A stretch of 64,000 bases of DNA from a virus (IMGVR_UViG_3300044712_002679:116406-180405), one strand, 5' to 3'; positions 2,288-46,670 are shown, counted from the first letter of the stretch. Numbers and translations are program-made. Notes: a model not told the origin generated them from the sequence alone.

Positions 2288-2320
2288 TAAAAAAGCGTGA
2301 TTTTTCACGCTTTTTTATTT
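2288..2320. terminator. bidirectional intrinsic terminator (AAGCGTG...CACGCTT hairpin + T-run) between convergent genes
   Basis: 7-bp inverted repeat flanked by AAAAA and TTTTTT. Confidence 0.65.
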
Positions 2321-3121
2321 ATTCCATTTTAATTCGATAGCTTCAATCATTTTTGGCATATTTGCACTATAAAAACCTGCAGCATTAATGCATCCACATT
2401 CAATAATCTTATATTCAGGTTTATCATCTATTAGCACTTCACAAATATCCATAACAAATGCTTCAGCTAATTGATATATTTTAACCATCTGTTTACAAAA
2501 TTCTAATGCACCAACATCAACATCTTCGCTTCTTCTAATCCAACCACCCATTCTATAAAGACTTCCTGTGACCACTTCACCACCAATAATCCAAAATCTA
2601 AATTCTTTTGTAATATATTTAGGTGTACTAACTTGTATTTCAGTATTATCATTAAGGGATGTTTCTTCACCTTTTTTATAGAATTCTTCTTTCCAAGCAC
2701 ACCATTCATCTTTAGTATAAACTTTACCAGTAAAATATTTAGTATCTTCACATGGTCTAGCAAAAAACAATTCATCATTTATATCATCACCAAATCTTTG
2801 AATTTTTGAATCATAATTTAGAAGATTTTCCTTATAATACTTACTATAAACACGATAATCATGATTTTCATTCAATAAAGAACCAGGATGCCAACCATAC
2901 TTTTTTGCCAACCTTGCCATTTTTACTGAACCAAAACAAAATATATCCTTTCTTTTTGTTTTAAATTCAAAATCTTCAATAAAAGGTCTAACTTTAACTA
3001 CTTCATAATCAAAGTTAAATCTATCTAAAGTATTTATCAAAACATCAAAGTTTTCTTCTTTGAATGTGTTTTCTTGAATAACGTAATACATAAATAAATT
3101 TATTTTTTTAATATATAACAC
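2315..3121 (-). CDS. ATP-grasp-like protein (paralog of 58155-59207)
   Basis: shares block FRFWIIGGEVVTGSLY / YRFIVVDNIVVSGSLY and overall layout with 58155-59207; ATP-grasp assignment from motif memory only. Confidence 0.5.
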   Translation of the reverse strand: MLYIKKINLFMYYVIQENTFKEENFDVLINTLDRFNFDYEVVKVRPFIEDFEFKTKRKDIFCFGSVKMARLAKKYGWHPGSLLNENHDYRVYSKYYKENLLNYDSKIQRFGDDINDELFFARPCEDTKYFTGKVYTKDEWCAWKEEFYKKGEETSLNDNTEIQVSTPKYITKEFRFWIIGGEVVTGSLYRMGGWIRRSEDVDVGALEFCKQMVKIYQLAEAFVMDICEVLIDDKPEYKIIECGCINAAGFYSANMPKMIEAIELKWNK

Positions 3122-4889: not shown

Positions 4890-5091
4890 TCTATGTAAAG
4901 ATTGAATCTGCTAATGATAAAGGATATGAAGTTGAAAAATTTGAATTGGATTCCCACGTTTTTTATTTAATTCAAATTGGTGAAAAAGTTGATGTAAAAA
5001 TTAATTATGATAGGTATAATAATAAAACATCTGTTATGGGTATTGATGAATATTATTATCATAATTATTTAAATGACTATTGAATATTTTG

Positions 5092-5178
5092 TGTGCTAGG
5101 TGGGACTCGAACCCACGGTGAAGCTTACGCTTATCTGATTAAGAGTCAGGACCGTTCGCCAACTACGGATACTAGCAC
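5092..5178 (-). tRNA. class-II (long variable arm) tRNA with anticodon CUU and discriminator A73
   Basis: 7-bp acceptor GTGCTAG/CTAGCAC, T-arm GTGGG-TTCGAGT-CCCAC, anticodon loop CTCTTAA (U33, CUU, A37), 17-nt variable arm with AAGC/GCTT stem; 87 nt. Confidence 0.55.
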
Positions 5179-5186
5179 ATTTTTTG

Positions 5187-5258
5187 CAGGCTGACAAGGA
5201 TTCGAACCCTGATCTAGAGATTTGGAGTCACTTATGCTAACCGTTGCACCATCAACCT
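5187..5258 (-). tRNA. tRNA-Trp (CCA)
   Basis: acceptor AGGTTGA/TCAGCCT (one G-U), T-arm CAGGG-TTCGAAT-CCTTG, anticodon loop CTCCAAA; one U-U mismatch in anticodon stem. Confidence 0.65.
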
Positions 5259-5271
5259 ATTACATAACTAT

Positions 5272-5304
5272 AAAATGGCAGCAAATTCAATTTGCTGCCA
5301 TTTT
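5272..5304. other. perfect 14-bp-arm palindrome (AAAATGGCAGCAAATT-ca-AATTTGCTGCCATTTT) between two tRNA genes
   Basis: read directly; followed by T-run in the direction of tRNA transcription. Confidence 0.7.
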
Positions 5305-5307
5305 ATT

Positions 5308-5443
5308 GTGGAGAAAGAAGGATTCGAACCCCCGACACACGGCTCCCATTGCTTAGATTTTTGGTTTGCTGTGCATAATTTTTACTTTCGACAAATTACG
5401 TTTTTCTCTTTTTACGTTGCTCTACCAACTGAGCTATTTCTCC
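5308..5443 (-). tRNA. interrupted tRNA: canonical 5' acceptor/D-arm and T-arm/3' acceptor separated by ~60-nt AT-rich insert
   Basis: 5' GGAGAAA-TA-GCTCAGTTGGTAGAGC... and ...GGGGG-TTCGAAT-CCTTC-TTTCTCC-A pair perfectly as one acceptor stem; anticodon arm not resolvable. Confidence 0.5.
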
Positions 5444-5450
5444 ATTTTTT

Positions 5451-5948
5451 TTATTCAGGTAAATCCCAAATATAATACTTATCTTCTTTTTCATATATTG
5501 TATCACGAGGTTCCAAATCAATATCTTCCAAATATCCAATACAATTATGAAAATTAGCCGAATCTGTATGATTCCATCTACTGTAATCATCATGTGTTCT
5601 TTGAAAATATGTAGTCAAAAATGATTCAATATATCCATGGTGTACCAATAGTGAATTGCTTGTATAAAAACATATCTTATGACCATTAATTATAGCAAAT
5701 GAAAAATTTATGTATACTGGTAATGTTTCAGATTTAATTTTACCATTTCCGTTAATATTCAATTCTATTATATAATAAGACCACCCCCTACTTACTTCTT
5801 CCCAATTATATTTAGGATCATTGTGATAATCTTGCCACAAATTAAATCTTTCTTCACTTGTTGCTTCAACTATCCATTCTACATCTTCTAAATAAGAATT
5901 TCCTAACTTTTTGTGTAAATAATTCCTGTTGTTTAATCCTACATCCAT
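5451..5948 (-). CDS. hypothetical protein (165 aa)
   Basis: clean ORF between tRNA genes; no motif recognised. Confidence 0.5.
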   Translation of the reverse strand: MDVGLNNRNYLHKKLGNSYLEDVEWIVEATSEERFNLWQDYHNDPKYNWEEVSRGWSYYIIELNINGNGKIKSETLPVYINFSFAIINGHKICFYTSNSLLVHHGYIESFLTTYFQRTHDDYSRWNHTDSANFHNCIGYLEDIDLEPRDTIYEKEDKYYIWDLPE

Positions 5949-6011
5949 AATATCAAATTTAATGTTTGATATTTTTAGATATAAATAAATGAAAAGTTTA
6001 ATAATTTTTTG

Positions 6012-6104
6012 CGGAGAATGTCAGGCTCGAACTGACACACCAGATTACTCATCCGATGACAAGTTTTCAAAACTAGGACGATACCAATTTCGTTTTAATT
6101 CTCC
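6012..6104 (-). tRNA. tRNA-Ser (UGA)
   Basis: 93 nt, acceptor GGAGAAT/ATTCTCC + G73, anticodon loop TTTGAAA, long variable arm, T-arm GTCAG-TTCGAGC-CTGAC. Confidence 0.65.
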
Positions 6105-6108
6105 AAAG

Positions 6109-6182
6109 GGGTAAATTACAGATTCGAACTGTAACTAAGTGAACCACAATCACCCATGCTAACCATTAACACCAATTTACCC
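6109..6182 (-). tRNA. tRNA-His (GUG) with genomically encoded G-1 pairing C73
   Basis: G-1 + GGTAAAT/ATTTACC + C73, anticodon loop TTGTGGT, T-arm TACAG-TTCGAAT-CTGTA. Confidence 0.75.
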
Positions 6183-6185
6183 ATA

Positions 6186-6995
6186 TTACCAATTCATTTT
6201 TCTTCCTTTTTTCCAACCATTTAATAAATAATCATTTAAATCTTTTTTATTTATCTTGATACATTTTTTTTCATTTTCACATATTATCCAACATTTTCCA
6301 AATTGTGAATTCTTTTCACCTTTTTGGGATATTGAATTTGCTTGACCAATTTTTATTTTAGTTTCATCTGAATGTTTTCTATTAACCCAAAATGATATTA
6401 ATTCACCATTAATATATCGTTCATCATCTTTACTAACTAGCATCACCTTATCTATATTATCTTTAACTAGTACTAGTCCTTTGTGTATTGATATTAATTC
6501 ACCATTAATATATCGTTCATCAGTATTAAAAACATTAAAAATATTACCATCTTTATCTTTACATATAATTCTATTTTTTTGTATAGATATCAATTCACCA
6601 TTAATATATCGTTCATCATCTTTACTAACTTTCAAAATATTACCATCTACATCATTAACCACAATTTTATTTTGAAATATTGGTCTATATTTATCTAAAT
6701 TATTATTTATATAATACCAACCACCACTTCCACCCAAAGTTAAATTGTAATATTCTTTAGAATTAACCACATCTTCATTTACTAATTCTTTTTCTTTTTT
6801 TAACATATCTTCTTTAGATTTACAAAAATGCAATATAACTTTTTCAAAATTATCAACACCATATTTATTTATAGCATTTTTTAAATATTTACCCGACCCC
6901 ATATAATCATCAAAAATATTTTCTGTTACATGACAGCCAATATATTTTTTATTATTAATTTTATTGGTTATTTCATAAATAATATAATTTTTCAT
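6186..6995 (-). CDS. GIY-YIG homing endonuclease with C-terminal tandem ~22-aa repeats
   Basis: N-terminus KNYIIYEITNK...KYIGCHV...MGSGKYLKNAINKYG (GIY...YIG + catalytic block); start moved to internal ATG 6995 to avoid overlapping tRNA 7056-7132; repeats (ERYINGELISI) encoded by DNA repeats 6390-6665. Confidence 0.7.
   Translation of the reverse strand: MKNYIIYEITNKINNKKYIGCHVTENIFDDYMGSGKYLKNAINKYGVDNFEKVILHFCKSKEDMLKKEKELVNEDVVNSKEYYNLTLGGSGGWYYINNNLDKYRPIFQNKIVVNDVDGNILKVSKDDERYINGELISIQKNRIICKDKDGNIFNVFNTDERYINGELISIHKGLVLVKDNIDKVMLVSKDDERYINGELISFWVNRKHSDETKIKIGQANSISQKGEKNSQFGKCWIICENEKKCIKINKKDLNDYLLNGWKKGRKMNW
6390..6665. repeat. imperfect tandem DNA repeats (unit containing caccattaatatatcgttcatca) inside GIY-YIG gene
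   Basis: at least three near-identical ~35-bp blocks at ~6397, 6496, 6596. Confidence 0.65.
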
Positions 6996-7055
6996 AACTT
7001 TTTTATTTGTATATATTAAATAAAAAAGTTCGATTTTAGTTCGAATTAAATTTTT

Positions 7056-7132
7056 GGGTGAAAGACGGGGTACGATCCCGCAAAGTTCCTGGTTCACAGC
7101 CAGGCAAGTCTACCAATTCCTCTACAATCACC
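7056..7132 (-). tRNA. tRNA-His-like (anticodon GUG, G-1:C73) with A54/U58-swapped T-loop and two U-U acceptor mismatches; possibly degenerate
   Basis: anticodon arm CCTGG-CTGTGAA-CCAGG, T-arm GCGGG-ATCGTAC-CCCGT. Confidence 0.4.
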
Positions 7133-7142
7133 ATAATTATTG

Positions 7143-7214
7143 TCAACCAGATGGGATTCGAACCCACGTAAACCGTGATTCACAATCACGTCCCGAACAC
7201 CAAACACGGGTTGC
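7143..7214 (-). tRNA. tRNA-His-like (GUG) with E. coli-like T-arm GTGGG-TTCGAAT-CCCAT, G-1:A73, weak D-arm; possibly degenerate
   Basis: anticodon arm CGTGA-TTGTGAA-TCACG perfect; acceptor CAACCCG/CTGGTTG with one mismatch. Confidence 0.4.
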
Positions 7215-7222
7215 TGGAGGGG

Positions 7223-7308
7223 CGGAGAAAACAGGAATCGAACCTGCACCCCAGTTACCCGAGGAACGGTTTTCCAAACCGTTGCAGTACCATTATGCTT
7301 ACTTCTCC
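7223..7308 (-). tRNA. tRNA-Ser (GGA)
   Basis: 86 nt, acceptor GGAGAAG/TTTCTCC + G73, anticodon arm ACGGT-TTGGAAA-ACCGT, variable-arm hairpin CCTCGG/CTGGGG. Confidence 0.65.
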
Positions 7309-7535
7309 AATTTTTTAAATTTTTCTTTTAATTTTTCTTTTACTTCATCAGAAGTATAATACCATTTCATATTAATTTGCATTTCAGAAATGATAATTCC
7401 CCATTCTGCTTTTGCTGAAAATTGTGGTTTGTATTTAATTCTTTGATAAATAAATATAAATGGCACACATAAATACCAACGATATCTAATTATTCTTTCA
7501 ATTAAATTGCATTCTTGAAATCTTTTATTTTTCAT
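7299..7535 (-). CDS. hypothetical small protein (78 aa) within tRNA array
   Basis: ORF in tRNA-free gap; start assignment uncertain. Confidence 0.3.
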   Translation of the reverse strand: MKNKRFQECNLIERIIRYRWYLCVPFIFIYQRIKYKPQFSAKAEWGIIISEMQINMKWYYTSDEVKEKLKEKFKKLEK

Positions 7536-7554
7536 AATTTATACATTTTTTAGC

Positions 7555-7638
7555 GGAGAGAAAGGGGGTCGAACCCTCAAGCCGAATAAACGACCGACAG
7601 ATTAGCAATCTGCTCCAATACCATTATGGGACCTCTCC
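7555..7638 (-). tRNA. tRNA-Ser (GCU)
   Basis: acceptor GGAGAGG/TCTCTCC + G73, anticodon arm GCAGA-TTGCTAA-TCTGT, long variable arm. Confidence 0.65.
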
Positions 7639-7728
7639 AAAATCAGAATACATTTTGTGGGTTTGAACCACGTTAACAAAGTTTCAGTTTGTATTTTAAC
7701 CTTTTGTTTTTGCTGTGCGTATTCTTTG

Positions 7729-7801
7729 TGGGGTAGACTGGTTACGATCCAGTTCCTATGGATTTTCAGTCCACCGCAATGACCACATCTGCCACTACCC
7801 C
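7729..7801 (-). tRNA. tRNA-Phe (GAA) with A54/U58-swapped T-loop (ATCGTAA)
   Basis: acceptor GGGGTAG/CTACCCC + A73, anticodon arm GTGGA-CTGAAAA-TCCAT, T-arm ACTGG-ATCGTAA-CCAGT. Confidence 0.65.
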
Positions 7802-7810
7802 AATTATTTG

Positions 7811-7894
7811 CGGAGAAAAAGGGATTCGAACCCCCACACCAGTTTCCCGATTTCACTGTTTTCGAAACAGCTAACTACACCAATAGGCTTCTCC
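7811..7894 (-). tRNA. tRNA-Ser (CGA)
   Basis: acceptor GGAGAAG/TTTCTCC + G73, anticodon arm GCTGT-TTCGAAA-ACAGT, long variable arm. Confidence 0.6.
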
Positions 7895-8055
7895 AAGTTC
7901 AGAATACTTTTGTGACATCGAATCACGACAAATTTCAAGTTTGCTTTACCTTTTTTTGCTGTATGTATTCTTTTTTGTGGACTGTATCGGATTTGCACCG
8001 ATTGTTAGCATAATTACTTTTTTGGTTTGCTATGCTTCAAAAAGCAACAGCCCAT

Positions 8056-8676
8056 TTATTTTTTATATTTATTTTTATTTTTTCCACCATGTGTATCTAA
8101 TGTTGCATTACAATTTGGACATAATATTCTTAAATTTGTTAATCTATGATCATTATTTATCCCATTTATATGATCTAATATTAAACTTATATGTTTTCCT
8201 TTCCAATTTTCATCTTGTCCACACATTTCACACTTTCTTTTTTTTAATCCATCTTCATATAATCTTTCTTTCAAATGTGTTGTATTAAAATTGGAATTTT
8301 CAACTAATATTAATGATAAATCTATTTTTTTATTTAAATTTTTTATTTGAAATTCATATTTAATAAAATGATCAATATTTATATCATATTTTTTAATATA
8401 TTTTTTTAATGTGTTATAAGAAGAACCAAAATTATTAATATCTAATTTAATTAAACATTCTTTATATGTTTTTGAATTTTTAACAATTTCAATTAAATAA
8501 TCTTTTTCATATTTATTTTTTACACTATAATGTGCTTCTATTTTTAATTTTTTTCGTCTTTCCTCAATTGATCTTATTGATCTATCTAATTTAGTTAAAC
8601 AATATTTTAAACCATAAATAGGATAATTTTCAATCAATATATCATCTTCATTTTTTGTCCATTTTTTATTTTTCAT
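8056..8676 (-). CDS. HNH homing endonuclease
   Basis: C-terminal CEMCGQDENWKGKHISLILDHINGINNDHRLTNLRILCPNCN (Cys pairs + DH...N...H...N HNH core); located inside tRNA array. Confidence 0.75.
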   Translation of the reverse strand: MKNKKWTKNEDDILIENYPIYGLKYCLTKLDRSIRSIEERRKKLKIEAHYSVKNKYEKDYLIEIVKNSKTYKECLIKLDINNFGSSYNTLKKYIKKYDINIDHFIKYEFQIKNLNKKIDLSLILVENSNFNTTHLKERLYEDGLKKRKCEMCGQDENWKGKHISLILDHINGINNDHRLTNLRILCPNCNATLDTHGGKNKNKYKK

Positions 8677-8767
8677 TTTAAGTTATTTTTTGTAGTATAT
8701 ATAAATATTTTAAACTACAAAAAATCACTATGAACTATAAAAATTCAAAAAAATAGTTATGGGAATG

Positions 8768-8848
8768 CACGACAGAGAGGATTCGAACCCCTGAACCTTT
8801 CGGTATAGTTTTGGAGACTATCAGCTTTAACCACTTGCATACTGCCGT
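8768..8848 (-). tRNA. tRNA-Trp-like (CCA) with 12-nt extended variable region; D-stem poorly formed
   Basis: acceptor ACGGCAG/CTGTCGT, anticodon arm ATAGT-CTCCAAA-ACTAT perfect, T-arm AGGGG-TTCGAAT-CCTCT. Confidence 0.45.
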
Positions 8849-8867
8849 ATATTTTTGCGGAGGCGAA

Positions 8868-8951
8868 GGGAATCGAACCCCCAAATCATTACTGATTTAC
8901 TTGTTTTCAAGACAAGCCCCTCGTCCATTCGGACCACCTCCAAATACAATT
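8868..8951 (-). tRNA. tRNA-Ser (UGA), second copy
   Basis: acceptor GGAGGTG/CGCCTCC + G73, anticodon arm CTTGT-CTTGAAA-ACAAG, variable hairpin AAATCA/TGATTT. Confidence 0.65.
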
Positions 8952-9001
8952 TAAAAGATTGTTCGTTATTTTTTGCTGTATGTATTCTTTGTGGGGTGAG
9001 G

Positions 9002-9077
9002 TGGATTCGAACCACCATCCCTGGATTTTCAGTCCAGTGCGAAACTGACCAACTGCGCTACCACCCCAATAAGTATA
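9002..9077 (-). tRNA. tRNA-Phe (GAA), second copy, with enlarged D region (extra hairpin CAGT-TTCGC-ACTG)
   Basis: acceptor GGGGTGG/TCACCCC + A73, anticodon arm CTGGA-CTGAAAA-TCCAG, T-arm GGTGG-TTCGAAT-CCACC. Confidence 0.55.
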
Positions 9078-9094
9078 ACGTATGTGCGTCTGGT

Positions 9095-9167
9095 GGGTCA
9101 CGATCCCACGACTCCATCATTAAAAGTGATGTACTCTACCAACTGAGTTACAGACGCAAAAATATTC
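9095..9167 (-). tRNA. tRNA-Lys (UUU), canonical class I, A54/U58-swapped T-loop (ATCGTGA)
   Basis: acceptor GCGTCTG/CAGACGC + A73, D-arm ACTC-AGTTGGTA-GAGT, anticodon arm CATCA-CTTTTAA-TGATG. Confidence 0.75.
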
Positions 9168-9196
9168 AATATGTCAATGAACTTTAAAAAAAATTG

Positions 9197-9282
9197 TGAT
9201 CCCGATGGGACTCGAACCCATGTACAACTTTCGTATCCCACATTAAAAGTGTGGTGCCTCGTTCCAACTCGGCCACGGAATC
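9197..9282 (-). tRNA. class-II (long variable arm) tRNA with anticodon UUU and discriminator A73
   Basis: acceptor GATTCCG/CGGGATC (one G-U), 3-bp D-stem GCC/GGC, anticodon arm CCACA-CTTTTAA-TGTGG perfect, 16-nt variable arm, T-arm ATGGG-TTCGAGT-CCCAT. Confidence 0.55.
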
Positions 9283-9302: not shown

Positions 9303-9345
9303 AAAAAAAATCCGAACTTTTTACGGTTCGGATTTTTCTGTTTTA
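9303..9345. terminator. bidirectional intrinsic terminator (ATCCGAAC...GTTCGGAT hairpin between A9 and T-run) bounding the tRNA array
   Basis: 8-bp inverted repeat read directly. Confidence 0.65.
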
Positions 9346-14144: not shown

Positions 14145-14632
14145 ATTGGTAATATGTGAAATTCTTTTAAAAATATATAATTTACAATATATTCCCAATT
14201 AGGGAATTCTTTAGAACCAAATTTTATAAATTCACCTTTAAAATCTAATTGTCCATGCATATCAGTATCATCAATTAGATAATCTCCAATATGTAAAGAT
14301 TTATCACATGACATATCAAGTCTTTCTAATGTTTCAAATCCTAAATGTTCAAGAACCCAATATGCTTTTTCTGTATAACTATTTAGATTATATATTGATG
14401 GTCGAGTTAAAATACGAACTTCAAAATATTCTTCAAGTTTTTTAAATGCTTTAATTGCACCTGGGATTTCTTCCAATTTAATAAAAAATCCAAACTGTGA
14501 TTGTGGATATTTTTGTGTTGGACATTTTTCCAAATCATTTAAATATGCCTTTGCAAAATTGCAAAGAACCCCATCTAAATCCACATATATTATTTTATTT
14601 TTTTTCATTTTTAAAATTTTTAAATTTTTCAT
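14141..14632 (-). CDS. HAD-family 5'(3')-deoxyribonucleotidase
   Basis: N-terminal IIYVDLDGVLCNF (DxDGVL motif I of HAD deoxyribonucleotidases). Confidence 0.65.
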   Translation of the reverse strand: MKNLKILKMKKNKIIYVDLDGVLCNFAKAYLNDLEKCPTQKYPQSQFGFFIKLEEIPGAIKAFKKLEEYFEVRILTRPSIYNLNSYTEKAYWVLEHLGFETLERLDMSCDKSLHIGDYLIDDTDMHGQLDFKGEFIKFGSKEFPNWEYIVNYIFLKEFHILPI

Positions 14633-15389
14633 ATTTTCTATTCAAATATATATCAGACAAATTTTCTTCATAAATATAATTTAAAAAATTAAATGCATCT
14701 CTATACAAATATAATCTATTTGTTGAATAATGTTTTAAAATTTTTGTTTTTTTTGTTATTATTTTATTTTTTTCTAAAAAATCTTGAATTTGTTCTAAGC
14801 ATTCTTTAGTTGATATTAAATTTACTTTTATTCTATTATTATCTTTACCATATATTGTTAATGATCCATCACCATCAAACATACCAGCTATAAAATTCAA
14901 ATAATATTTTTCATCTATGTTTTTAATAATGAAATTATCACTTTTTTCAACATTTATATATTTTTGTAATTTTTTTGTGAATAAATTATTTGTAATAGAT
15001 ATTACATATGAAGTATATTCTTTATTGTTTCTTTTGTCAATAGTTGTATTTTTAACAATTTTATGTTCAGATTCTAATGACTTTTTAAATTTTATTAATA
15101 TTTCTTCATCTTTAGATACTAATCTAACTTTATTATTTTTTAAACAACCATCTGCAACAATAAAACCTAACCAATACGCTTTTTCTTTCGTGTCAATATT
15201 ATCAAAATATGATATATTGAATTTTAATTTGCTTTCATTTAACCTATTTCTATTTGTATTAATATTATTGTTTCTTAATATATTACTTACTGTTACTTGT
15301 GATATATTTAATTTTTTTGATATTTCAATTTGTTTATTTGTTAACGATAAATTAATTATTTCTGTTATTAAATCTTTATTTATTTTCAT
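14595..15389 (-). CDS. LAGLIDADG homing endonuclease (two-motif, monomeric type)
   Basis: AYWLGFIVADGCL and NFIAGMFDGDGSL motifs; N-terminal HTH-like segment. Confidence 0.7.
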   Translation of the reverse strand: MKINKDLITEIINLSLTNKQIEISKKLNISQVTVSNILRNNNINTNRNRLNESKLKFNISYFDNIDTKEKAYWLGFIVADGCLKNNKVRLVSKDEEILIKFKKSLESEHKIVKNTTIDKRNNKEYTSYVISITNNLFTKKLQKYINVEKSDNFIIKNIDEKYYLNFIAGMFDGDGSLTIYGKDNNRIKVNLISTKECLEQIQDFLEKNKIITKKTKILKHYSTNRLYLYRDAFNFLNYIYEENLSDIYLNRKYEKFKNFKNEKK

Positions 15390-28620: not shown

Positions 28621-29154
28621 ATGAAGCAAAAAGAATCAGAAAACAGAATTAATTATTCAATTAAAGATTTAACCGTAAGGTTAGTTGGTGATAATGTTAC
28701 AAATGGTGTAATTGACACTAAAAGTGCAATAAAATTGGCTAGAGATATGGAATTAGATTTGGTCGAAATTTCGGGTCCAGTTAACGGAAATCCATCAATT
28801 TGCAAAATAGTTGACTATCAAAAATATCTTTACGACAAAAAGAAAAAAGATAAAGATCAAAAGAAAAAGCAAAAATTAAGTCAGTCAGAAGTCAAAGAAA
28901 TTAGAATGACCCCGCATACTGATGAACACGATTTTAATTTTAAATTAAATCATGCTAAAAACTTCTTAACCAATAACGATAAAGTATTAGTTTCAGTATT
29001 CTTTAAGGGTAGAGAAATATCATATAAAGAACAAGGTCAAATTGTTTTATTAAAATTTGCAAAGGAATTGGAAGATATTGGCATACCTGAGTATTTACCT
29101 AAACTAGAAGGAAAAAAAATGCTAATGATGATTAAACCTAAACCAAAAAAATAA
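28621..29154 (+). CDS. infC: translation initiation factor IF-3
   Basis: aligns by eye with E. coli IF3 across N- and C-domains (NRIN..VRL.G; DLVEISP.A.PPVCRI.DY.K.LY; KKKQK...VKEI..P..DEHD...KL.....FL; GRE). Confidence 0.85.
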   Translation: MKQKESENRINYSIKDLTVRLVGDNVTNGVIDTKSAIKLARDMELDLVEISGPVNGNPSICKIVDYQKYLYDKKKKDKDQKKKQKLSQSEVKEIRMTPHTDEHDFNFKLNHAKNFLTNNDKVLVSVFFKGREISYKEQGQIVLLKFAKELEDIGIPEYLPKLEGKKMLMMIKPKPKK

Positions 29155-30716: not shown

Positions 30717-31307
30717 TTATTTTGTGTTTAAATCAAATTCCACTATTTTATCTTTTGGTTTGATTGTTATTATATTAACAATTTTTTTCATATTATATAA
30801 CACCATCATTTTACCATTACCAAATGGATTATTCATTAAATCGTAATCTACTCCATTTTTAATATAAAATTCCCTAAGATATTTGGTATTTGTTGATTTT
30901 ATTGCTTTTTCATTTAAAATAATGTTATTAAAAATATATCCTGGAACTTTACCATCTTTGATATATTTTTCTAATCTATTCATTACCATTTTTTTCAAAC
31001 TTCCAATTACATAAAATTTTATAAATTCTTTAACCTTTTCAATATCTAAAAATACTTTATTAATATCAACACCATATTCAACTGTAATCAAATATAATTT
31101 TCGACTTCCTTTTGCATATCGTATTGCGGTACTATAATCTGTTGCTATATATAAACCAGCACCATACTCATATCTACCATTTTTTTGTGCAATAATATCA
31201 TCATAATGGTCAAGATTTCCACCATGCCAAAAATTCATAGTGTTTGGTATGTTGGGTGGAAAAATTTCTTCTTCGTTTAATTTGAATTTATCAAATTGTA
31301 ATATCAT
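30717..31307 (-). CDS. hypothetical protein (196 aa)
   Basis: operon context. Confidence 0.45.
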   Translation of the reverse strand: MILQFDKFKLNEEEIFPPNIPNTMNFWHGGNLDHYDDIIAQKNGRYEYGAGLYIATDYSTAIRYAKGSRKLYLITVEYGVDINKVFLDIEKVKEFIKFYVIGSLKKMVMNRLEKYIKDGKVPGYIFNNIILNEKAIKSTNTKYLREFYIKNGVDYDLMNNPFGNGKMMVLYNMKKIVNIITIKPKDKIVEFDLNTK

Positions 31308-32896: not shown

Positions 32897-33355
32897 TTAA
32901 ATTAATGATTGAAATTTTACATATTTTTTAGGACACAAATAAAAATTTCGATAACTTTTTTCTTTTTTATCATACAATTCTTTAAAAAACCAATTTTTAT
33001 ATGTACTACTATATATTATTAAACACTTGGTTTTAGAAGCATTTAATATTATATAGCAATATAATGTCCTTATATTTCTTTTATCTATTTTATATTTTTC
33101 ATCAACAATTATATCTTGGTATGGTACATCATCAAATGTCATAAAATCTATTTCTTTCCATTGTTTGACTTCAACCCGCATTGATATTTTTATATCACCA
33201 TCATCAGTATGTTCATATCTCGATTCTTCATCTGGTGTTACAGTATATGGTAAAATCTCACTATCAAAACCCAATTTTGTCATCCAATTATTAACAACAA
33301 TTGTTGCTTTTTTAGCATCATTTAAATTTTGCGTAAAAATGTTTCTGGGTTTCAT
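32897..33355 (-). CDS. hypothetical protein (152 aa)
   Basis: 4-nt overlap with polB fragment stop. Confidence 0.45.
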   Translation of the reverse strand: MKPRNIFTQNLNDAKKATIVVNNWMTKLGFDSEILPYTVTPDEESRYEHTDDGDIKISMRVEVKQWKEIDFMTFDDVPYQDIIVDEKYKIDKRNIRTLYCYIILNASKTKCLIIYSSTYKNWFFKELYDKKEKSYRNFYLCPKKYVKFQSLI

Positions 33356-34722
33356 ATTGAAAATATTGAATTTAATACTGACAATCTTTTATTTATTGTT
33401 GGTAATCCTATTGGTTCGAGAAAACGATTCACAATATGTAAGAATGTTAAATCAAATTGTTCATCAAAATCAATTTTAACACCTTCTTTTTCTACAATTT
33501 CATATGGATGCATACTTCTTTGAAAAGCAAAAACATTATTTTTAGGATGATTACAATAATAATATTTTATTCTTCCACCTCTTATATTATCATATTTTAC
33601 TTTATATTCCGAATTTTTGTTTAATAAATAATTGTGTAATGCTGCAGCTTTAACACCAAAATGCGCACCTTTAATACATACAACATCGGTTACATCATCT
33701 ATACACTTAATTGAATAATTACTACAACTAGTGGTCATACTAATATCTTCGATATCTGCCATTATAAATTCTCGCTTCATATCTTTAACCAATTTTAAAA
33801 CTTTTCTAATATCAATATTATTAGGATTTCCAAATATATACCTTAAAAAATCATAAATATTTTCTCTAACAAATGGTGGTGTAGAAGATTTAACAATCTC
33901 AACACCCTTTGGATAAAAATATGTCAAATTTTCATAAAAAATTCCATCTTCCCAAACAACATTGTTTATGTAATTCTTTTTTTGAATATGTAATGCTGAA
34001 CGATTAATTGTTTCAAGTTCAAATACATGAAGATTTTTAACACCATATCTTGATGCATATTCAACAAGCCAACTGTTATATAATTTTTCAACAAATATTC
34101 TATTAGCATGTAATATCCAATCCAATTCTTCACCCATATAATTAGATGAATCAATCATTGGTTTAAAAGAAATATATAATGAATCGGTATCACCATATAT
34201 GATTATTGGCTTTTCTTTTGGAATTTGTTCTATATGTGAAAAGTCACCAATTATTCTTTTAAATAAAATATTATAACTTTTAAATTCTTTCTTATCTTCA
34301 ATTAAATCGAATTTATTTATATTTAACTTTTTTAATAACCCATCATCACCATCTAATGAATTGTGTGGATAATTAATATTCATTCCATTAATATCCAACA
34401 AGAAATATTTACCTTCTTTTTCGGCTATATATTCTAAACCTAATCTTTTGTGGGTTTCGATATCCAAATGCCACTCATTATAAAAATATTGTTCAATTTT
34501 TTTCAACATAAAATTTATAACATCACGACCATGTGCAGTAATAGCATTTGCTATATGTGAATTTGATATTACAAAATGCGGATTTGCGAATGCGCCGTAT
34601 GTTCCGTTAATCACGAGCTTAAGTGCTAATTGCATCGCTTTCGCTCTATCATATTCAGCTTTTGTTTCGTCTATTCGACTTTTTAATTCCGCAATTTTTT
34701 GTCTTTTTTCATCAGGTGTCAT
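33352..34722 (-). CDS. family-B DNA polymerase, C-terminal half only (motif B to thumb)
   Basis: KLVINGTYGAF (KxxxNSxYG motif B), IIIYGDTDSLY (motif C), IQKKNYI (KKRY-like); ORF begins ~40 aa before motif B; no exonuclease or motif A region. Confidence 0.75.
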   Translation of the reverse strand: MTPDEKRQKIAELKSRIDETKAEYDRAKAMQLALKLVINGTYGAFANPHFVISNSHIANAITAHGRDVINFMLKKIEQYFYNEWHLDIETHKRLGLEYIAEKEGKYFLLDINGMNINYPHNSLDGDDGLLKKLNINKFDLIEDKKEFKSYNILFKRIIGDFSHIEQIPKEKPIIIYGDTDSLYISFKPMIDSSNYMGEELDWILHANRIFVEKLYNSWLVEYASRYGVKNLHVFELETINRSALHIQKKNYINNVVWEDGIFYENLTYFYPKGVEIVKSSTPPFVRENIYDFLRYIFGNPNNIDIRKVLKLVKDMKREFIMADIEDISMTTSCSNYSIKCIDDVTDVVCIKGAHFGVKAAALHNYLLNKNSEYKVKYDNIRGGRIKYYYCNHPKNNVFAFQRSMHPYEIVEKEGVKIDFDEQFDLTFLHIVNRFLEPIGLPTINKRLSVLNSIFSI

Positions 34723-40488: not shown

Positions 40489-41808
40489 ATGACAAAAACA
40501 GAAGAATTTATCCAAAAAGCGAAACTTGTTCACGGGGATAAATATAATTATTCTAAAGTCGAATATATTAATAATCACACTAAAGTTACTATTATTTGTC
40601 CAAAGCATGGTGAATTTAAACAACAACCAGCAAATCATTTAAATAATATGGGTTGTCCAAAATGTGTTGGCAATATAAAATTAACAACAACAGATTTTTT
40701 ATCAAAAGCAAAAGAAATTCATGGGGATAAATATGATTATTCAAAAGTTGAATATGTCGGAATATTTAATCACGTGAAAATAATTTGTCCAATTCATGGG
40801 GAATTTGAACAAACACCAAGACAACATCTTAAAGGTCGTGGGTGTTATAAATGTGGTGGTACACAAAAATATACACAAAATGAATATGTTATAAAAGCAA
40901 AGGAACTTCACGGGGATAAATATGATTATTCAAAAGTTAATTATTTGGGTGGTAGAAAAGATATAATTATAATTTGTCCTAAACACGGTGAATTTAAACA
41001 AAAAGCTGGTCAACATATACATGGTTCAGGTTGTCCAAATTGTGCTGGATTAGGGTTTATATTTCTATCATTTGAAGAAGCAAAAATTTTTGTTAAAAAT
41101 CTTAATTTACAAACACAAAATGAATGGCAAAAATATTGTAAATCGGGAAATAAACCTGATAATATACCAATAGCACCCGAAATTGTTTATAAAAAAGTTT
41201 GGATTAACTGGGGTGATTGGTTGGGTACATTTAAAATTTCAAATCAAAAAAAAGAATATTGGACATTTGAAGAAGCTAGAATATTTGTTAGAAATCTTAA
41301 TTTAAAATCAATAACAGAATGGAAAAGATATTGTAAAAATGAAAATAAACCTAGCAATATTCCAAATGATCCATACGGAACGTATAATAAATATGGTTGG
41401 TTAAATTGGGGTGATTTTTTAGGCTCATTTACATTAGCACCAAAAGATAGACAATATTTATCATTTGAAGAAGCAAGAAATTTTGTTAGAACACTTAATT
41501 TAAATTCAAAAGAAAAATGGGTAAATTATTGTAAATCGGGAAGTAAGCCTAACAATATTCCAAATGATCCATATAGTTATTATAAAGATGATGGTTGGAT
41601 TGATATGGGGGATTGGTTGGGTACATTTACAATTGCCCCACGATATAAACAATTAAATTATCTTTCAGAAGAAGAATTCATACAATTTATTAAAGATACA
41701 TTTCCAAATTTATATGGTGCTGAACTTCATAAAGCATATGAAGCTTGGTGGGATGAAAATAAACCAGAATATTTACCAAAGGATGTTGCTAAATATTATA
41801 ATAAATAA
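40489..41808 (+). CDS. repeat-family protein 1: 4 N-terminal Zn-ribbon modules + 5 x ~57-aa KSGNKP.NIP/WGDWLG repeats + conserved C-terminal tail
   Basis: modules HGDKYDYSKVEY..(K)V.IICP.HGEF.Q.P..HL.G.GCP.C x4; repeats (FEEAR.FVR.LNL.S...W..YCKSGNKP.NIP.DP...Y...GW..WGDWLGTF); tail LSEEEFIQFIKDTFPN...AYEAWWDENKPEYLPK. Confidence 0.7.
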   Translation: MTKTEEFIQKAKLVHGDKYNYSKVEYINNHTKVTIICPKHGEFKQQPANHLNNMGCPKCVGNIKLTTTDFLSKAKEIHGDKYDYSKVEYVGIFNHVKIICPIHGEFEQTPRQHLKGRGCYKCGGTQKYTQNEYVIKAKELHGDKYDYSKVNYLGGRKDIIIICPKHGEFKQKAGQHIHGSGCPNCAGLGFIFLSFEEAKIFVKNLNLQTQNEWQKYCKSGNKPDNIPIAPEIVYKKVWINWGDWLGTFKISNQKKEYWTFEEARIFVRNLNLKSITEWKRYCKNENKPSNIPNDPYGTYNKYGWLNWGDFLGSFTLAPKDRQYLSFEEARNFVRTLNLNSKEKWVNYCKSGSKPNNIPNDPYSYYKDDGWIDMGDWLGTFTIAPRYKQLNYLSEEEFIQFIKDTFPNLYGAELHKAYEAWWDENKPEYLPKDVAKYYNK

Positions 41809-43518: not shown

Positions 43519-44823
43519 ATGTCAAAAAAATTAACAACAGAAGAATTCATTATTAAAGCCAAAGGTGTTCATGGTGATAAATATGATTATTCTAAAGTTG
43601 ATTATGTTAATAATCATATTAAAGTTACTATTATTTGTCCAATACATGGTATTTTTGAACAAACACCAAGTAATCATTTACAAGGTAAGAATTGTATTAA
43701 TTGTGGTTCTTATAATCAATCTAATACCATAAAAAATAAAAATATATCATTTGAAGAATCAAGAAATTTTGTTAGAAATCTTAATTTGAAATCGCAAAAA
43801 GAATGGAATAAATATATTAAATCAGGTAATAAACCTGATAATATTCCAAGTATGCCAAATCGAATATATAAAAATAAAGGTTGGATTAGTATGGGTGATT
43901 GGTTAGGAACTTTTACAATAGCATCATATAAAAAAATTTTTTTACCATTTGAAGAAGCAAGAATTTTTGCTAGAAATCTTAATTTAAATTCACAAAAAGA
44001 ATGGTTAAAATATCGAAAATCTGATAATAAACCTGATAATATTCCAAGTAATCCATATAGTGTATATAAAAATGATGGTTGGTTATCATGGGGTGATTGG
44101 TTAGGAACAAAAAATGATTTTAATGGATTTTTACCATTTGATGATGCTAGAAATTTTGCTAGAAATCTTAATTTAAAACCATATGATAAATGGAAAAAAT
44201 ATTGTAAATCAGGAAATAAACCTAACAATATTCCAAGTAGTCCTGATAAAGTATATAAAAATAAAGGTTGGATTGATTTTGGTGATTGGTTAGGTTATAA
44301 AAAAGATTTTTTATCATTTGAAGAAGCCAGAACTTTTGTTAGAAATCTTAATTTAAAATCACAAAAAGAATGGATTGAATATTGTAAATTAGGAAATATG
44401 TTAGATAATATACCAAGTAATCCACAACATACTTATAAAAATAAAGGTTGGATTAGTTGGGGTGATTGGTTAGGCACATTTACTATTTATAAAAACAATT
44501 TTTTACCATTTGAAGAAGCAAGAATATTCGCAAGAAATCTTAATTTAAAATACAAAAAGAAATGGATTGATTATTGTAAATATGGTAATAAACCAAATAA
44601 TATTCCATCTGATCCATATCGTACATATAAAAATAATGGATGGGTTAGTTTTGGTAATTGGTTAGGTACTGAATATTTATCGGAAGAAGAATTCCAACAA
44701 TTTATTATTGATAATTTTTCAGATGTTCATCCTGATGATATGAATAAATTTTATGAAATATGGTGGAATGATAATCAACCAATTAATTTACCAAAATATC
44801 CAAAAGAATATTATAATAAATAA
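43519..44823 (+). CDS. repeat-family protein 3: 1 Zn-ribbon module + ~6 repeats + tail variant
   Basis: HGDKYDYSKVDYVNNHIKVTIICPIHGIFEQTP..HLQGKNCINC then repeats; tail LSEEEFQQFIIDNFSDVHPDDM. Confidence 0.7.
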   Translation: MSKKLTTEEFIIKAKGVHGDKYDYSKVDYVNNHIKVTIICPIHGIFEQTPSNHLQGKNCINCGSYNQSNTIKNKNISFEESRNFVRNLNLKSQKEWNKYIKSGNKPDNIPSMPNRIYKNKGWISMGDWLGTFTIASYKKIFLPFEEARIFARNLNLNSQKEWLKYRKSDNKPDNIPSNPYSVYKNDGWLSWGDWLGTKNDFNGFLPFDDARNFARNLNLKPYDKWKKYCKSGNKPNNIPSSPDKVYKNKGWIDFGDWLGYKKDFLSFEEARTFVRNLNLKSQKEWIEYCKLGNMLDNIPSNPQHTYKNKGWISWGDWLGTFTIYKNNFLPFEEARIFARNLNLKYKKKWIDYCKYGNKPNNIPSDPYRTYKNNGWVSFGNWLGTEYLSEEEFQQFIIDNFSDVHPDDMNKFYEIWWNDNQPINLPKYPKEYYNK

Positions 44824-44913: not shown

Positions 44914-45546
44914 ATGAAAAAGTTTTTATCATTTGAAGAAGCAAAGGCATTTGCACAAAGTTTAAATTTAAAATCCTTAAAGGATTGGAAAGATTACTGT
45001 AAATCGGGTAACAAACCTAATAATATTCCAAATGATCCGTACAGTGCATATAAAAACAACAATTGGATTTCGTGGGGTGATTGGTTGGGTACATTTAGGG
45101 TTTCGAATAGGAACAAACAGTTCATATCTTTTGAAGAAGCAAAAGAAATTATCAAAAAATTAAATTTGAAAAACCGAAAAGATTATGAAAAATATCAATC
45201 AGATATGATTGAAAAACTTAATAATGCGACTGTACCAACAAATCCAAATGTTGTATATAGTAGTTCTTGGAAAAGTTGGAATGATTTTTTGGGTATAGAA
45301 CCAAATGAATTTCTTCCATTTGAAGAAGCAAGGAATTTTGTGCGATCACTTAATTTAAAAAGTGTTCGGGATTGGGAAAAATACAGAAAACAAAAACCTG
45401 ATAATATTCCATCTTTACCAAGTAGTTATTATAAAGAAAAATGGATAAATTGGGGGGATTGGTTAGGAACAAACAATGTTGCTACTAAATACGTATCATT
45501 CGAAGATGCAAAAAATATTGTTCGTAAATTAAAAGATTCAAAATGA
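44914..45546 (+). CDS. repeat-family protein 4 (short; ~3.5 repeats, no Zn ribbon, no tail)
   Basis: same repeat unit. Confidence 0.65.
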   Translation: MKKFLSFEEAKAFAQSLNLKSLKDWKDYCKSGNKPNNIPNDPYSAYKNNNWISWGDWLGTFRVSNRNKQFISFEEAKEIIKKLNLKNRKDYEKYQSDMIEKLNNATVPTNPNVVYSSSWKSWNDFLGIEPNEFLPFEEARNFVRSLNLKSVRDWEKYRKQKPDNIPSLPSSYYKEKWINWGDWLGTNNVATKYVSFEDAKNIVRKLKDSK

Positions 45547-46670
45547 AAAAGGAATTTTTACCATTTGAAGAAGCAAGAACATTCGTAAGATGCCTTAATT
45601 TAAAATCTTTTAAAGATTGGAAAAAATATTGTAAATCTGGAAATAAACCTATTAATATCCCATCTTGTCCTCATGTTATATATAAAAATGATTGGATTAG
45701 TTGGGGGGATTGGATAGGAACATTTTCAGTTCATACTAAAGAATTTTTACCTTTCGAAGAAGCAAGAAATTTTGTTTATACTAAAAATTTGAAAAATCAA
45801 GCTGAATGGTGGATATATTGTAAATCTGGAAATAAACCTGATAATGTGCCGTGTTCACCTGACATAATTTATAAAAATAATGGTTGGAATGGTTGGTATG
45901 ATTGGTTTGGATATGATAAAATATCGGTTTTAAAAAATAACTTCATAATAAAAGCTAACATTGTCCATAATAATAAATTTGATTATTCAAAAGTTAATTA
46001 TATTAATGTTAAAAATAAAGTTATAATTGGATGTCCCATACATGGTGATTTTGAACAAACTATAAATGGACATTTAAATGGTAGGGGGTGTTCAAAATGT
46101 GCTAAAATTGATTATAGATCATTTGAAAATGCTAGAAATTTTGTTCATTCTTTAAATTTACAAACGAATGCGGAATGGATAATTTTTAATAAAAGCGAAA
46201 ATATGCCTAAAGATATTCCACATAACCCAAATGTTGTATATAAAGATAATGGTTGGATTAGCATAGGTGATTGGTTAGGAACAAATTCAATTGCACCACA
46301 ATATATGAAATATAGAACATTTGAAGAAGCTAAAATTTTTGCACAAAAGCAAAATTTAAAATCTAAAGATGAATGGAAAGTATTTAAAAAATCCGAAAAT
46401 TTTCCTATTGATATACCTAAAAATCCAAACGTTACATATAAAGATAATGGATGGATTTCTTGGGGTGATTTTTTAGGTACATTTACATTAGCACCAAAAA
46501 ATATATCAAAAAATTATTTATCGGAAGAAGCAGCCAAACAATTTCTTATTGCTAATTTTTCAGATGTTCATCCCGATGATATGGATGATGCTTATGAAAA
46601 ATGGTGGAATAATAATCAACCAATTAATTTACCAAAACATATAAAATTACATTATAAATTGTTTTATTAA
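45543..46670 (+). CDS. repeat-family protein 5: repeats flanking an internal Zn-ribbon module + tail
   Basis: HNNKFDYSKVNYINVKNKVIIGCPIHGDFEQTINGHLNGRGCSKC internal; tail LSEEAAKQFLIANFSDVHPDDM. Confidence 0.65.
   Translation: MKKEFLPFEEARTFVRCLNLKSFKDWKKYCKSGNKPINIPSCPHVIYKNDWISWGDWIGTFSVHTKEFLPFEEARNFVYTKNLKNQAEWWIYCKSGNKPDNVPCSPDIIYKNNGWNGWYDWFGYDKISVLKNNFIIKANIVHNNKFDYSKVNYINVKNKVIIGCPIHGDFEQTINGHLNGRGCSKCAKIDYRSFENARNFVHSLNLQTNAEWIIFNKSENMPKDIPHNPNVVYKDNGWISIGDWLGTNSIAPQYMKYRTFEEAKIFAQKQNLKSKDEWKVFKKSENFPIDIPKNPNVTYKDNGWISWGDFLGTFTLAPKNISKNYLSEEAAKQFLIANFSDVHPDDMDDAYEKWWNNNQPINLPKHIKLHYKLFY

Follow-up and report, generated by a model that had tools for sequence, protein, structure and literature searches.

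Why would a phage keep sixteen tRNA or tRNA-like genes for only five amino acids side by side, several of them in forms that depart from the canonical tRNA body? The question is raised by an array at positions 5091-9282, lying entirely on the minus strand, of a 64,000-nt viral stretch (IMGVR_UViG_3300044712_002679:116406-180405; this 64-kb stretch is hereafter the window). The present study suggests that the array is one isotype-grouped sub-cluster of a huge-phage tRNA region, that it was enlarged by duplication and invaded by homing endonuclease genes, and that its odd tRNAs were kept, giving a robust tRNA supply independent of the host. Taken as a whole, we consider this explanation the probable one. 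A huge-phage tRNA array with homing endonucleases is known already; the conserved non-canonical tRNA bodies, and an element marked by the sequence CAGCAA (the CAGCAA element), are new.

Gene content of the array

With ARAGORN, 14 tRNA genes were called in 5091-9282, every one on the minus strand, and the Rfam tRNA model gave 13 loci at or above its gathering score of 29 bits, including 5309-5443. With the two loci that Rfam adds, 5309-5443 (45.5 bits) and 6014-6102 (25.1 bits, under the 29-bit cut-off), the total comes to the 16 one-strand genes that a first-pass annotation had counted. A formal tRNA finder thus called most of the claimed genes rather than rejecting them, and the Ser, Phe, Trp, His and Lys isotypes agree with the ARAGORN and Rfam calls. 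Twelve loci were found by ARAGORN and by Rfam at 29 bits or more; 7142-7220 was called by ARAGORN only, 6014-6102 reached only the score given above, and 7977-8053 appeared only under relaxed ARAGORN settings. The weakest of the 16 are 7142-7220 and 6014-6102.

All five Ser genes combine a Ser anticodon, a long variable arm and G73, and their anticodons (UGA, GGA, CGA, GCU) jointly read all six Ser codons, as had been proposed; the A73 of Leu and Tyr occurs in none of them. The GUG anticodon, an encoded G-1 and C73 of tRNA-His are present together in 6108-6181 and 7056-7131, and 7142-7220 has C at -1 and A73. CCA directly follows the discriminator base in no gene of the array. The parts of the array and its border are listed below in the order of transcription, T-loop variants being denoted by the bases at positions 54 and 58.

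9306-9337, minus: strong hairpin (13-bp stem) with a T-run, ending the upstream unit just before the first tRNA (from the sequence)
9196-9282, minus: class-II-shaped tRNA of 87 nt, Lys anticodon UUU, Ser-like D-arm, A73 (ARAGORN; Rfam 53.8 bits; family covariation)
9084-9157, minus: tRNA-Lys(UUU), A54/U58 T-loop ATCGTGA (ARAGORN; Rfam 63.6 bits)
8991-9067, minus: tRNA-Phe(GAA), enlarged D-loop (ARAGORN; Rfam 59.7 bits)
8943-8990, minus: short CAGCAA element between Phe and Ser-UGA, stem GAATACA/TGTATTT (sequence; alignment of three units)
8857-8942, minus: tRNA-Ser(UGA), G73, long variable arm (ARAGORN; Rfam 35.3 bits)
8767-8848, minus: tRNA-Trp(CCA), 82 nt, 12-nt variable region forming a CC-GAAA-GG mini-hairpin, G73 (ARAGORN; Rfam 46.8 bits)
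8056-8676, minus: free-standing HNH homing endonuclease gene, 206 amino acids (PHROG 10822, E=2e-41)
7977-8053, minus: tRNA-like unit at the Phe position of the repeat, 17-nt 'anticodon' loop, T-loop TGCAAAT, probably degenerate (ARAGORN, relaxed settings)
7901-7971, minus: CAGCAA element, stem AGAATAC/GTATTCT, anticodon-arm-like loop CTTGAAA, T-arm-like loop TTCGATG; ends 6 nt before Ser-CGA
7810-7894, minus: tRNA-Ser(CGA), unusually short D-arm, family kept in relatives (ARAGORN)
7728-7801, minus: tRNA-Phe(GAA), A54/U58 T-loop ATCGTAA (ARAGORN; Rfam 54.7 bits)
7645-7725, minus: CAGCAA element, stem AGAATAC/GTATTCT, anticodon-arm-like loop CTGAAAC, T-arm-like loop TTCAAAC; ends 6 nt before Ser-GCU
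7553-7638, minus: tRNA-Ser(GCU), 81% identity to a T5-like phage tRNA-Ser (ARAGORN; Rfam 46.1 bits)
7299-7535, minus: open reading frame (ORF) of 78 amino acids within the array, no match in family searches
7220-7309, minus: tRNA-Ser(GGA) (ARAGORN; Rfam 51.1 bits)
7142-7220, minus: His-anticodon tRNA-like unit, acceptor stem with two mismatches, A73, G-1 lacking (ARAGORN only)
7056-7131, minus: tRNA-His(GUG), G-1, C73, acceptor GUGAUUG/CUUUCAC with tandem U·U, T-loop ATCGTAC (ARAGORN; Rfam 39 bits)
6186-6995, minus: SegB-like GIY-YIG homing endonuclease gene, 269 amino acids, between two His genes (Pfam; PHROG 314)
6108-6181, minus: canonical tRNA-His(GUG), G-1, C73 (ARAGORN; Rfam 49 bits)
6014-6102, minus: Ser(UGA)-like tRNA, weak D-arm, one anticodon-stem mismatch, possible pseudogene (Rfam 25.1 bits; no ARAGORN call)
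5451-5948, minus: ORF of 165 amino acids within the array (PHROG 18096, E=4e-11)
5309-5443, minus: tRNA-like unit with intact acceptor, D and T arms, its anticodon and variable region disrupted by an insertion of about 55-60 nt that contains ACAGCAA (Rfam 45.5 bits)
5270-5306, no strand assigned: perfect hairpin with a 16-bp stem, lying between Trp and the interrupted tRNA-like unit (from the sequence)
5186-5258, minus: tRNA-Trp(CCA), A1-U72, G73 (ARAGORN; Rfam 56 bits)
5091-5178, minus: class-II-shaped tRNA of 88 nt, Lys anticodon CUU, A73 (ARAGORN; Rfam 47.7 bits; 89-96% identical orthologues; covariation)

Related arrays and the putative source phage

Related arrays were recovered by searching IMG/VR and metagenomes, Trout Bog Lake among them, for the class-II Lys anticodon arm; L-numbers (L063, L075 and so on) refer to these fetched phage contigs or loci, L242 being LR756501. 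No DNA near-identical to the window was found among GenBank phages, and a search of IMG/VR with the flanking 460-amino-acid protein found no relatives. The exact 165-amino-acid ORF (5451-5948) was recovered only on a 1-kb Logan contig from SRR26046407. The window's DNA polymerase (33352-34722) shares 48% identity with that of LR756501 and LR756503 (735 kb), 41-46% with those of 634-642-kb genomes and 32% with that of Lak-A2. A full-length IF3 gene lies at 28621-29154 on the plus strand (Pfam IF3_N, E=1e-19; IF3_C, E=5e-32). Such a gene is typical of huge phages that redirect host translation. On pairwise polymerase identity and IF3, within the 64 kb visible, the source is provisionally placed as a Mahaphage-type huge freshwater phage. 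The genomes of 634-735 kb belong to the Mahaphage clade of Al-Shayeb et al. 2020 (PMC7162821), for which that paper gives Bacteroidetes as predicted hosts and up to 67 tRNAs plus IF1/IF3.

The same five isotypes, Lys, Phe, Ser, Trp and His, occur in L063, L067, L071, L075, L077, L080, L084 and L086, and the gene order Ser-CGA, Phe (A54/U58), His, His, Trp, class-II Lys-CUU is common to the window and its relatives. Since both isotypes and order recur in related contigs, the five-isotype grouping is, as far as such comparison goes, real and inherited. The Mahaphage arrays of LR756501 (735 kb) and LR756504 (636 kb) resemble the window, which covers 64 kb of its genome, in low G+C content, in IF3 and in a Trp/His/Phe/Lys/Ser module, and they too carry A54/U58 and A54/A58 variants and a CAGCAA element. 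PMC7162821 gives tRNA numbers and their distinctness from host tRNAs; no mention of structural tRNA variants like those documented here was found in the passages searched.

The layout of LR756501, the closest relative with a complete genome, bears directly on why the repertoire looks so narrow. Its module reads Trp, His (A54/A58), His, Phe, Lys, Ser-CGA, Lys, Trp, Lys-CUU (A54/U58), Lys-CUU. Five Leu genes lie about 8 kb downstream, followed by Ile, Cys, Ile, Asp and Asn, then by two Asn, Ile, Tyr and two Asp, and last by sub-clusters of three Gln, four Met, Ile and three Glu; Pro stands on the module's other side, and all these isotype-grouped sub-clusters fall within about 70 kb. Following tRNA transcription, the other clusters come after the module, and on that side the window shows only 5 kb. 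In the 64-kb window itself, no Asn, Ile, Tyr or Leu tRNA was found. By analogy with LR756501, where other isotype clusters follow the module, the narrowness most likely reflects the position of the window's end. The earlier suggestion that the five isotypes mirror a set of nuclease-targeted host tRNAs is weakened accordingly, because the LR756501 module is one of many such sub-clusters. As a practical lesson, when only part of a huge-phage genome is at hand, the grouping of its tRNA genes by isotype can by itself make the repertoire look 'narrow'.

Unusual tRNA bodies

The canonical T-loop TTCRANN, with U54·A58, is absent from Lys 9084-9157 (ATCGTGA), Phe 7728-7801 (ATCGTAA) and His 7056-7131 (ATCGTAC), the other genes being canonical. 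The three ATCGTNN (A54/U58) loops seen at first pass were therefore borne out; the coordinates then given for Lys (9095-9167) were off by about 10 nt. Among unselected phage tRNAs, A54/U58 was found in six of 252 in one sample and in 12 of 734 unique tRNAs in another, the isotypes being Ile, Asn, Phe, Tyr, Asp, His and Lys. The three cases among 14 in the window thus represent about ten times the latter rate (binomial estimate, P ~0.001), the background being a rate in sampled phage tRNAs.

Across about 1,100 phage tRNAs, U58 was always accompanied by A54 (38 of 38, 21 of these unselected for the feature), and A54 occurred together with A58 in 10 cases. Because U58 always comes with A54 across the samples, A54/U58 is a recurrent, strictly covarying variant. 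The orthologues of Phe 7728-7801 in L075, L077 and L080 keep A54/U58 while their anticodon stems carry compensatory substitutions. Lys 9084-9157 has the same T-stem as its closest relative (L078_2492), whose loop is the canonical TTCGAGT, and the orthologues of His 7056-7131 have U/A at 54/58 in four contigs and A/A in three, against A/U in the window. A tRNA-Lys(UUU) pattern with the A54/U58 loop was found in 17 IMG/VR contigs, in every case as a real tRNA inside an array. Bacteria have the Lys pattern too, in 32 genomes, where it is mostly a lone chromosomal gene (Labilithrix and other Myxococcota, Saccharibacteria and other Patescibacteria, Gemmatimonadales); in Limosilactobacillus it is part of a large chromosomal tRNA gene cluster. 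That the swap is specific to phages is ruled out by these bacterial tRNA-Lys genes. The claim that the swap is a true covariation in genes that look functional withstood this comparison, given the 38/38 coupling, the Phe gene conserved in three contigs and the bacterial chromosomal cases.

In reviews, the 54-58 position of the T-loop is described as U54·A58, with A54·A58 in eukaryotic initiator tRNA and tRNA-Ala(AGC); no mention of the A54/U58 swap was found in the passages searched (PMC7912444, PMC7566577). The eukaryotic A54·A58 tRNAs are like those of the window in that the near-universal U54·A58 is replaced; they are functional, and function is predicted for the window's genes. A54·A58 is also present in relatives of the window's His tRNA, while the window's own version is the reciprocal A54/U58 swap. 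Geometrically, A54/U58 may be a reverse Hoogsteen pair with its partners exchanged, or it may close a 3-nt loop as a Watson-Crick pair.

The His gene at 7056-7131 had been described as a degenerate His-like copy, a view that its relatives contradict. Its acceptor stem, 5'-GUGAUUG and 3'-CUUUCAC, recurs in tRNA-His of six other contigs with 14 of 14 stem nucleotides identical, including the tandem mismatches U5·U68 and U6·U67. In contrast to this invariant stem, the interiors of the family are only 46-91% identical (mean 58%) and differ in arm length. An acceptor identical in seven contigs with diverged interiors argues that the gene is conserved, not decayed.

All three Lys genes have anticodon UUU or CUU and A73, and two of the three are class-II-shaped. 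To our knowledge, a class-II shape is not known for tRNA-Lys. Compensatory changes were found in 18 of the 23 predicted pairs of the class-II Lys family, the extra arm included, and A73 is present in all members as aligned. Some relatives have an ordinary Lys D-arm with the arm inserted, and one shares its acceptor with the window's canonical Lys (GCGTCTG/CAGACGC). In view of A73, the normal Lys D-arm of some members and the shared Lys acceptor, these genes are most simply taken as Lys tRNAs that gained an arm.

Stemmed extra arms on class-I isotypes are not confined to Lys. In phage arrays (L058-L088, L121-L240) we counted 72 unique cases, among them Asn 12, Ile 12, Met 4, Gln 4, His 3 and Lys 23, the search pattern having favoured Lys; versions of Trp, Thr, Glu and Cys also occur in the set. 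That these arms are special GNRA-capped insertions was considered and rejected, GNRA caps making up 33% there and 39% in ordinary Ser, Leu and Tyr variable arms. The converse of the extra-arm Lys is seen in LR756501 (L242, 32762-32914), where tRNA-Leu(UAA) and tRNA-Leu(UAG) of 74-75 nt without a long variable arm adjoin normal Leu genes of 83-85 nt. The odd 12-nt variable region noted earlier in one Trp gene was confirmed in 8767-8848 as a mini-hairpin. The Ser-CGA family has a very short conserved D-arm (CCTATTGGTGTAGTTAG) in the window, L063, L067, L075, L077, L080 and LR756501; the gene is called by ARAGORN, and its best Rfam match is the selenocysteine tRNA model, below threshold.

Taken together, comparison with relatives indicates that most of the odd tRNAs, that is the A54/U58 T-loop genes, the class-II Lys, the extra-hairpin Trp and the U·U His, were kept by selection as alternative versions and are not products of decay.

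Duplicated units and the CAGCAA element

Alignment reveals three units in the array, each composed of a Phe or Phe-position tRNA, a CAGCAA spacer and a Ser gene, with an identical block common to all three: CCCAC..AAAGAATAC(AT/GC)ACAGCAAAAA. These three units of class-I tRNA, CAGCAA element and Ser, together with the His, Lys and Trp paralogues, indicate that the array grew by local duplication.

In the spacers 7901-7971 and 7645-7725, ACAGCAA begins two nt after the 5' strand of a 7-bp closing stem, and each spacer contains one hairpin shaped like an anticodon arm and one shaped like a T-arm. The general architecture is (A)AGR-NNNN, 2-4 nt, CAGCAA, a variable interior, the complementary strand and then G. 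The closing stems differ between arrays yet stay complementary. The architecture was found 32 times in the first set of loci against 3-8 in shuffled sequence, and 33 times in a second, independent set (124 loci), where shuffling gave 5-10. Some two thirds of the hits, LR756501 included, have a tRNA of the same strand no more than 300 nt away, mostly at 3-16 nt. Stems with one non-Watson-Crick position have G·U in 39 cases and A·C in 11, compared with 33 and 38 in shuffles. This excess of G·U over A·C, unlike the shuffles, points to pairing of the stem as RNA on the tRNA strand.

Further copies were found at L063 5985-6061, L037 6603-6675, L049 6250-6499, L242 32226-32363 and L243 49394-49452, and in L105, L110, L135, L205 and L209, the element occupying tRNA-like slots of the arrays. 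Its interior varies, and in many copies one hairpin resembles the anticodon arm of a neighbouring isotype. No Rfam family was matched by the CAGCAA elements; the copy at L105 1079-1203 scored 34.9 bits with YrlA (RF02553), below the gathering score of 69. YrlA is like the CAGCAA element in having a closing stem around tRNA-like arms. In contrast, the window copies give no YrlA hit and the CAGCAA interior is not conserved. The element is thus a candidate for a new RNA motif. Other structured RNAs lie in or next to phage arrays above their Rfam gathering scores, namely a c-di-GMP-I riboswitch, skipping-rope RNA, wcaG RNA and tmRNA (L110 2197-2280 and 4493-4575; L135 3628-3721; L209 13678-14089).

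Homing endonuclease genes

The gene at 6186-6995 matches Pfam SegE_GIY-YIG (PF19835), GIY-YIG (PF01541) and NUMOD3, and PHROG 314, 'homing endonuclease', at E=6e-38. The region that encodes its N-terminus (6699-6979, 281 nt) is 70.5% identical in DNA to SegB-like genes of the tRNA regions of T4-like phages. A homologue of 59% identity occupies the same site in L063, between two His genes. In L075, L077 and L080 only 11-13 nt separate the two His genes, and no endonuclease gene is present there. Presence and absence at the His-His site is the pattern expected of a homing endonuclease gene. The gene at 8056-8676 matches PHROG 10822, 'HNH endonuclease', at E=2e-41 (Pfam HNH 19.7 bits, under the cut-off of 21.4), and the HNH motif DHINGINNDHRLTNLRILCPNCN is visible in its translation. 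Its homologues occur in other phage tRNA arrays (L082, L049, L079, L088), so that homologues of both endonuclease proteins recur across such arrays. The earlier proposal of two homing endonuclease genes inserted between tRNAs, as with T4 segB, is supported by the SegB homology and by presence and absence in relatives, and the comparison indicates that the two selfish genes, a SegB-like GIY-YIG gene and an HNH gene, invaded the array after it had grown.

The T4 cluster has eight tRNAs of different isotypes and also small stable non-tRNA RNAs, whereas the window array has multiple isodecoders of five isotypes with non-canonical bodies; cleavage site and homing in the window are predicted. As in the window, the co-oriented tRNA genes of T4 are split by a free-standing GIY-YIG gene, and T4 SegB, encoded in the tRNA region, is reported to be a homing endonuclease on experimental grounds (PMC2330249).

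A group I intron around the HNH gene, an idea prompted by L049, was rejected, as the neighbouring tRNAs are intact and Rfam Intron_gpI gave no hit in the window; the tRNAs flanking both endonuclease genes are intact, which does not fit an intron-borne gene. In L049 (7461-8524, minus strand; IMGVR_UViG_3300038345_000251, a 393-kb contig), a class-II Leu(UAA)-like tRNA is broken after U34 by an insert of about 980 nt with an HNH ORF related to that of the window; it is intron-like, yet without an Rfam group I intron hit. Outside the array, the window has one LAGLIDADG and three HNH-type genes (14595-15389, minus; 40489-41808, 43519-44823 and 45543-46670, plus), and homing elements heavily colonise this phage genome.

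Discussion

How would such an array serve the phage? Under the explanation that we favour, the region would be the Lys, Phe, Ser, Trp and His sub-cluster of a Mahaphage-type tRNA region grouped by isotype. Its co-oriented genes would presumably be transcribed as polycistronic precursors, from which host RNase P and 3' processing enzymes would excise the tRNAs, and the CCA end would come from a CCA-adding enzyme. The endonuclease genes would spread by cutting endonuclease-free alleles in co-infecting relatives. With IF3 and, by analogy with LR756501, a near-complete tRNA set elsewhere in the genome, translation of the phage may become independent of the host tRNA pool. A canonical and a divergent version of one decoder would most plausibly protect this supply from host enzymes by which particular tRNAs are cleaved or inactivated.

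Among the tRNAs that host enzymes attack, tRNA-Lys is the best documented, and tRNA-Lys(UUU) is cut both by AriB of PARIS and by a bacterial Schlafen (PMC12409363, PMC13056530). The tRNA-Lys of T5 evades AriB through changes in the anticodon-stem sequence at positions 39 and 41 (PMC12409363). T5, with its tRNA-Lys, tRNA-Thr and tRNA-Asn against AriB (PMC11464382, PMC12409363), and the window have in common that commonly targeted tRNAs, Lys foremost, are encoded by the phage in non-canonical sequences. The difference is that T5 has point changes, while in the window an arm is added, the T-loop pair is swapped and the acceptor is mismatched; the likeness is in the proposed function only.

Several observations weigh against the favoured explanation. 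Since ordinary chromosomal tRNA-Lys genes also have the A54/U58 loop, it does not have to serve against defences. The variable-loop side is the one from which class II synthetases of the Asp/Asn/Lys type approach the tRNA, and the class-II Lys tRNAs might for that reason not be substrates of lysyl-tRNA synthetase. Four units (7142-7220, 6014-6102, 7977-8053 and 5309-5443) have poor scores or disrupted arms and may be pseudogenes. Furthermore, a sigma-70 promoter scan of the array gave no more hits than in shuffled sequence.

Alternatively, the array could be a pure supply of tRNAs that raises decoding capacity for AT-rich codon usage, with the structural variants as tolerated neutral drift. 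We regard this as a real possibility, although clearly not the better bet. AAA (103 per 1000) and TTT (45 per 1000) are among the commonest codons and have two or three genes each, A54/U58 is tolerated in chromosomal bacterial tRNA-Lys genes, and the tRNA number of huge phages increases with genome size according to PMC7162821. However, of the nine commonest codons in the window (AAA, AAT, GAA, GAT, TAT, ATT, TTA, TTT and ATA) only AAA and TTT are served and seven are without a tRNA. His (1.8% of residues) and Trp (1.7%) are scarce, yet they are served by 2-3 and 2 genes, and the rare codons UCG (3.2 per 1000), UCC (2.0) and AAG (9.2) have tRNAs of their own. Neutral drift, in turn, leaves unexplained a two-mismatch acceptor identical in seven diverged contigs and an extra arm that compensatory changes have preserved. 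The tRNAs present in the window therefore do not follow codon usage, as the first-pass annotation had stated. This argues against simple codon matching, yet the codon data do not mark the five amino acids as defence targets.

A bolder idea, which we put forward tentatively and consider somewhat less probable again, is that huge phages diversify their own tRNA bodies and embed CAGCAA RNAs as counter-defence, the former as nuclease-resistant decoders and the latter as anticodon-arm decoys. Diversification would here comprise the extra arm on Lys, Asn, Ile, Trp, His and other class-I tRNAs, the 54-58 swap and the fixed acceptor mismatches. Phage tRNAs are known to defeat tRNA-cleaving bacterial defences, and the escapes on record involve point changes in the anticodon arm. 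In the window cluster and its relatives, conserved changes affect other parts of the tRNA: the acceptor stem, the variable arm and the 54-58 pair of the T-loop. If such features give resistance or act as decoys, the known range of workable tRNA alterations would be wider, and the variants would offer defined substrates on which to test PrrC, AriB, Schlafen and nucleases like them.

Could the odd members instead be pseudogenes, left by tandem duplication and endonuclease-driven gene conversion, with the canonical copies alone at work? For the array as a whole this is doubtful. It suits the four units named above, for which no homologues were found among the fetched loci. Of these, 7142-7220 is without His identity elements and without an Rfam hit, and its two acceptor mismatches, A73 and missing G-1 make a His acceptor improbable; 6014-6102 scores under the Rfam cut-off, the 'anticodon' loop of 7977-8053 is 17 nt long, and an insertion breaks 5309-5443. 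Decay does not fit Ser-CGA, the A54/U58 tRNAs, the class-II Lys or the U·U His, all of them conserved across contigs with compensatory substitutions.

Seryl- and leucyl-tRNA synthetases (SerRS and LeuRS) do not read the anticodon and find identity largely in the tRNA body, so that the Ser-like D-arm and long variable arm of 9196-9282 might suggest recoding, with Ser or Leu inserted at AAA/AAG by class-II Lys-anticodon tRNAs, but this is very improbable: all members of the family have A73 against G73 in every Ser gene here, several are an ordinary Lys body with an inserted arm, canonical Lys tRNAs adjoin the class-II ones, and AAA makes up 10% of codons while proteins read with the standard code match their families strongly (e.g., IF3, E=5e-32).

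Near the array, the window also encodes a PARP/ADP-ribosyltransferase-like ORF (30717-31307, minus; a weak match under the Pfam cut-off) and an R2K-type ATP-grasp protein (2315-3121, minus).

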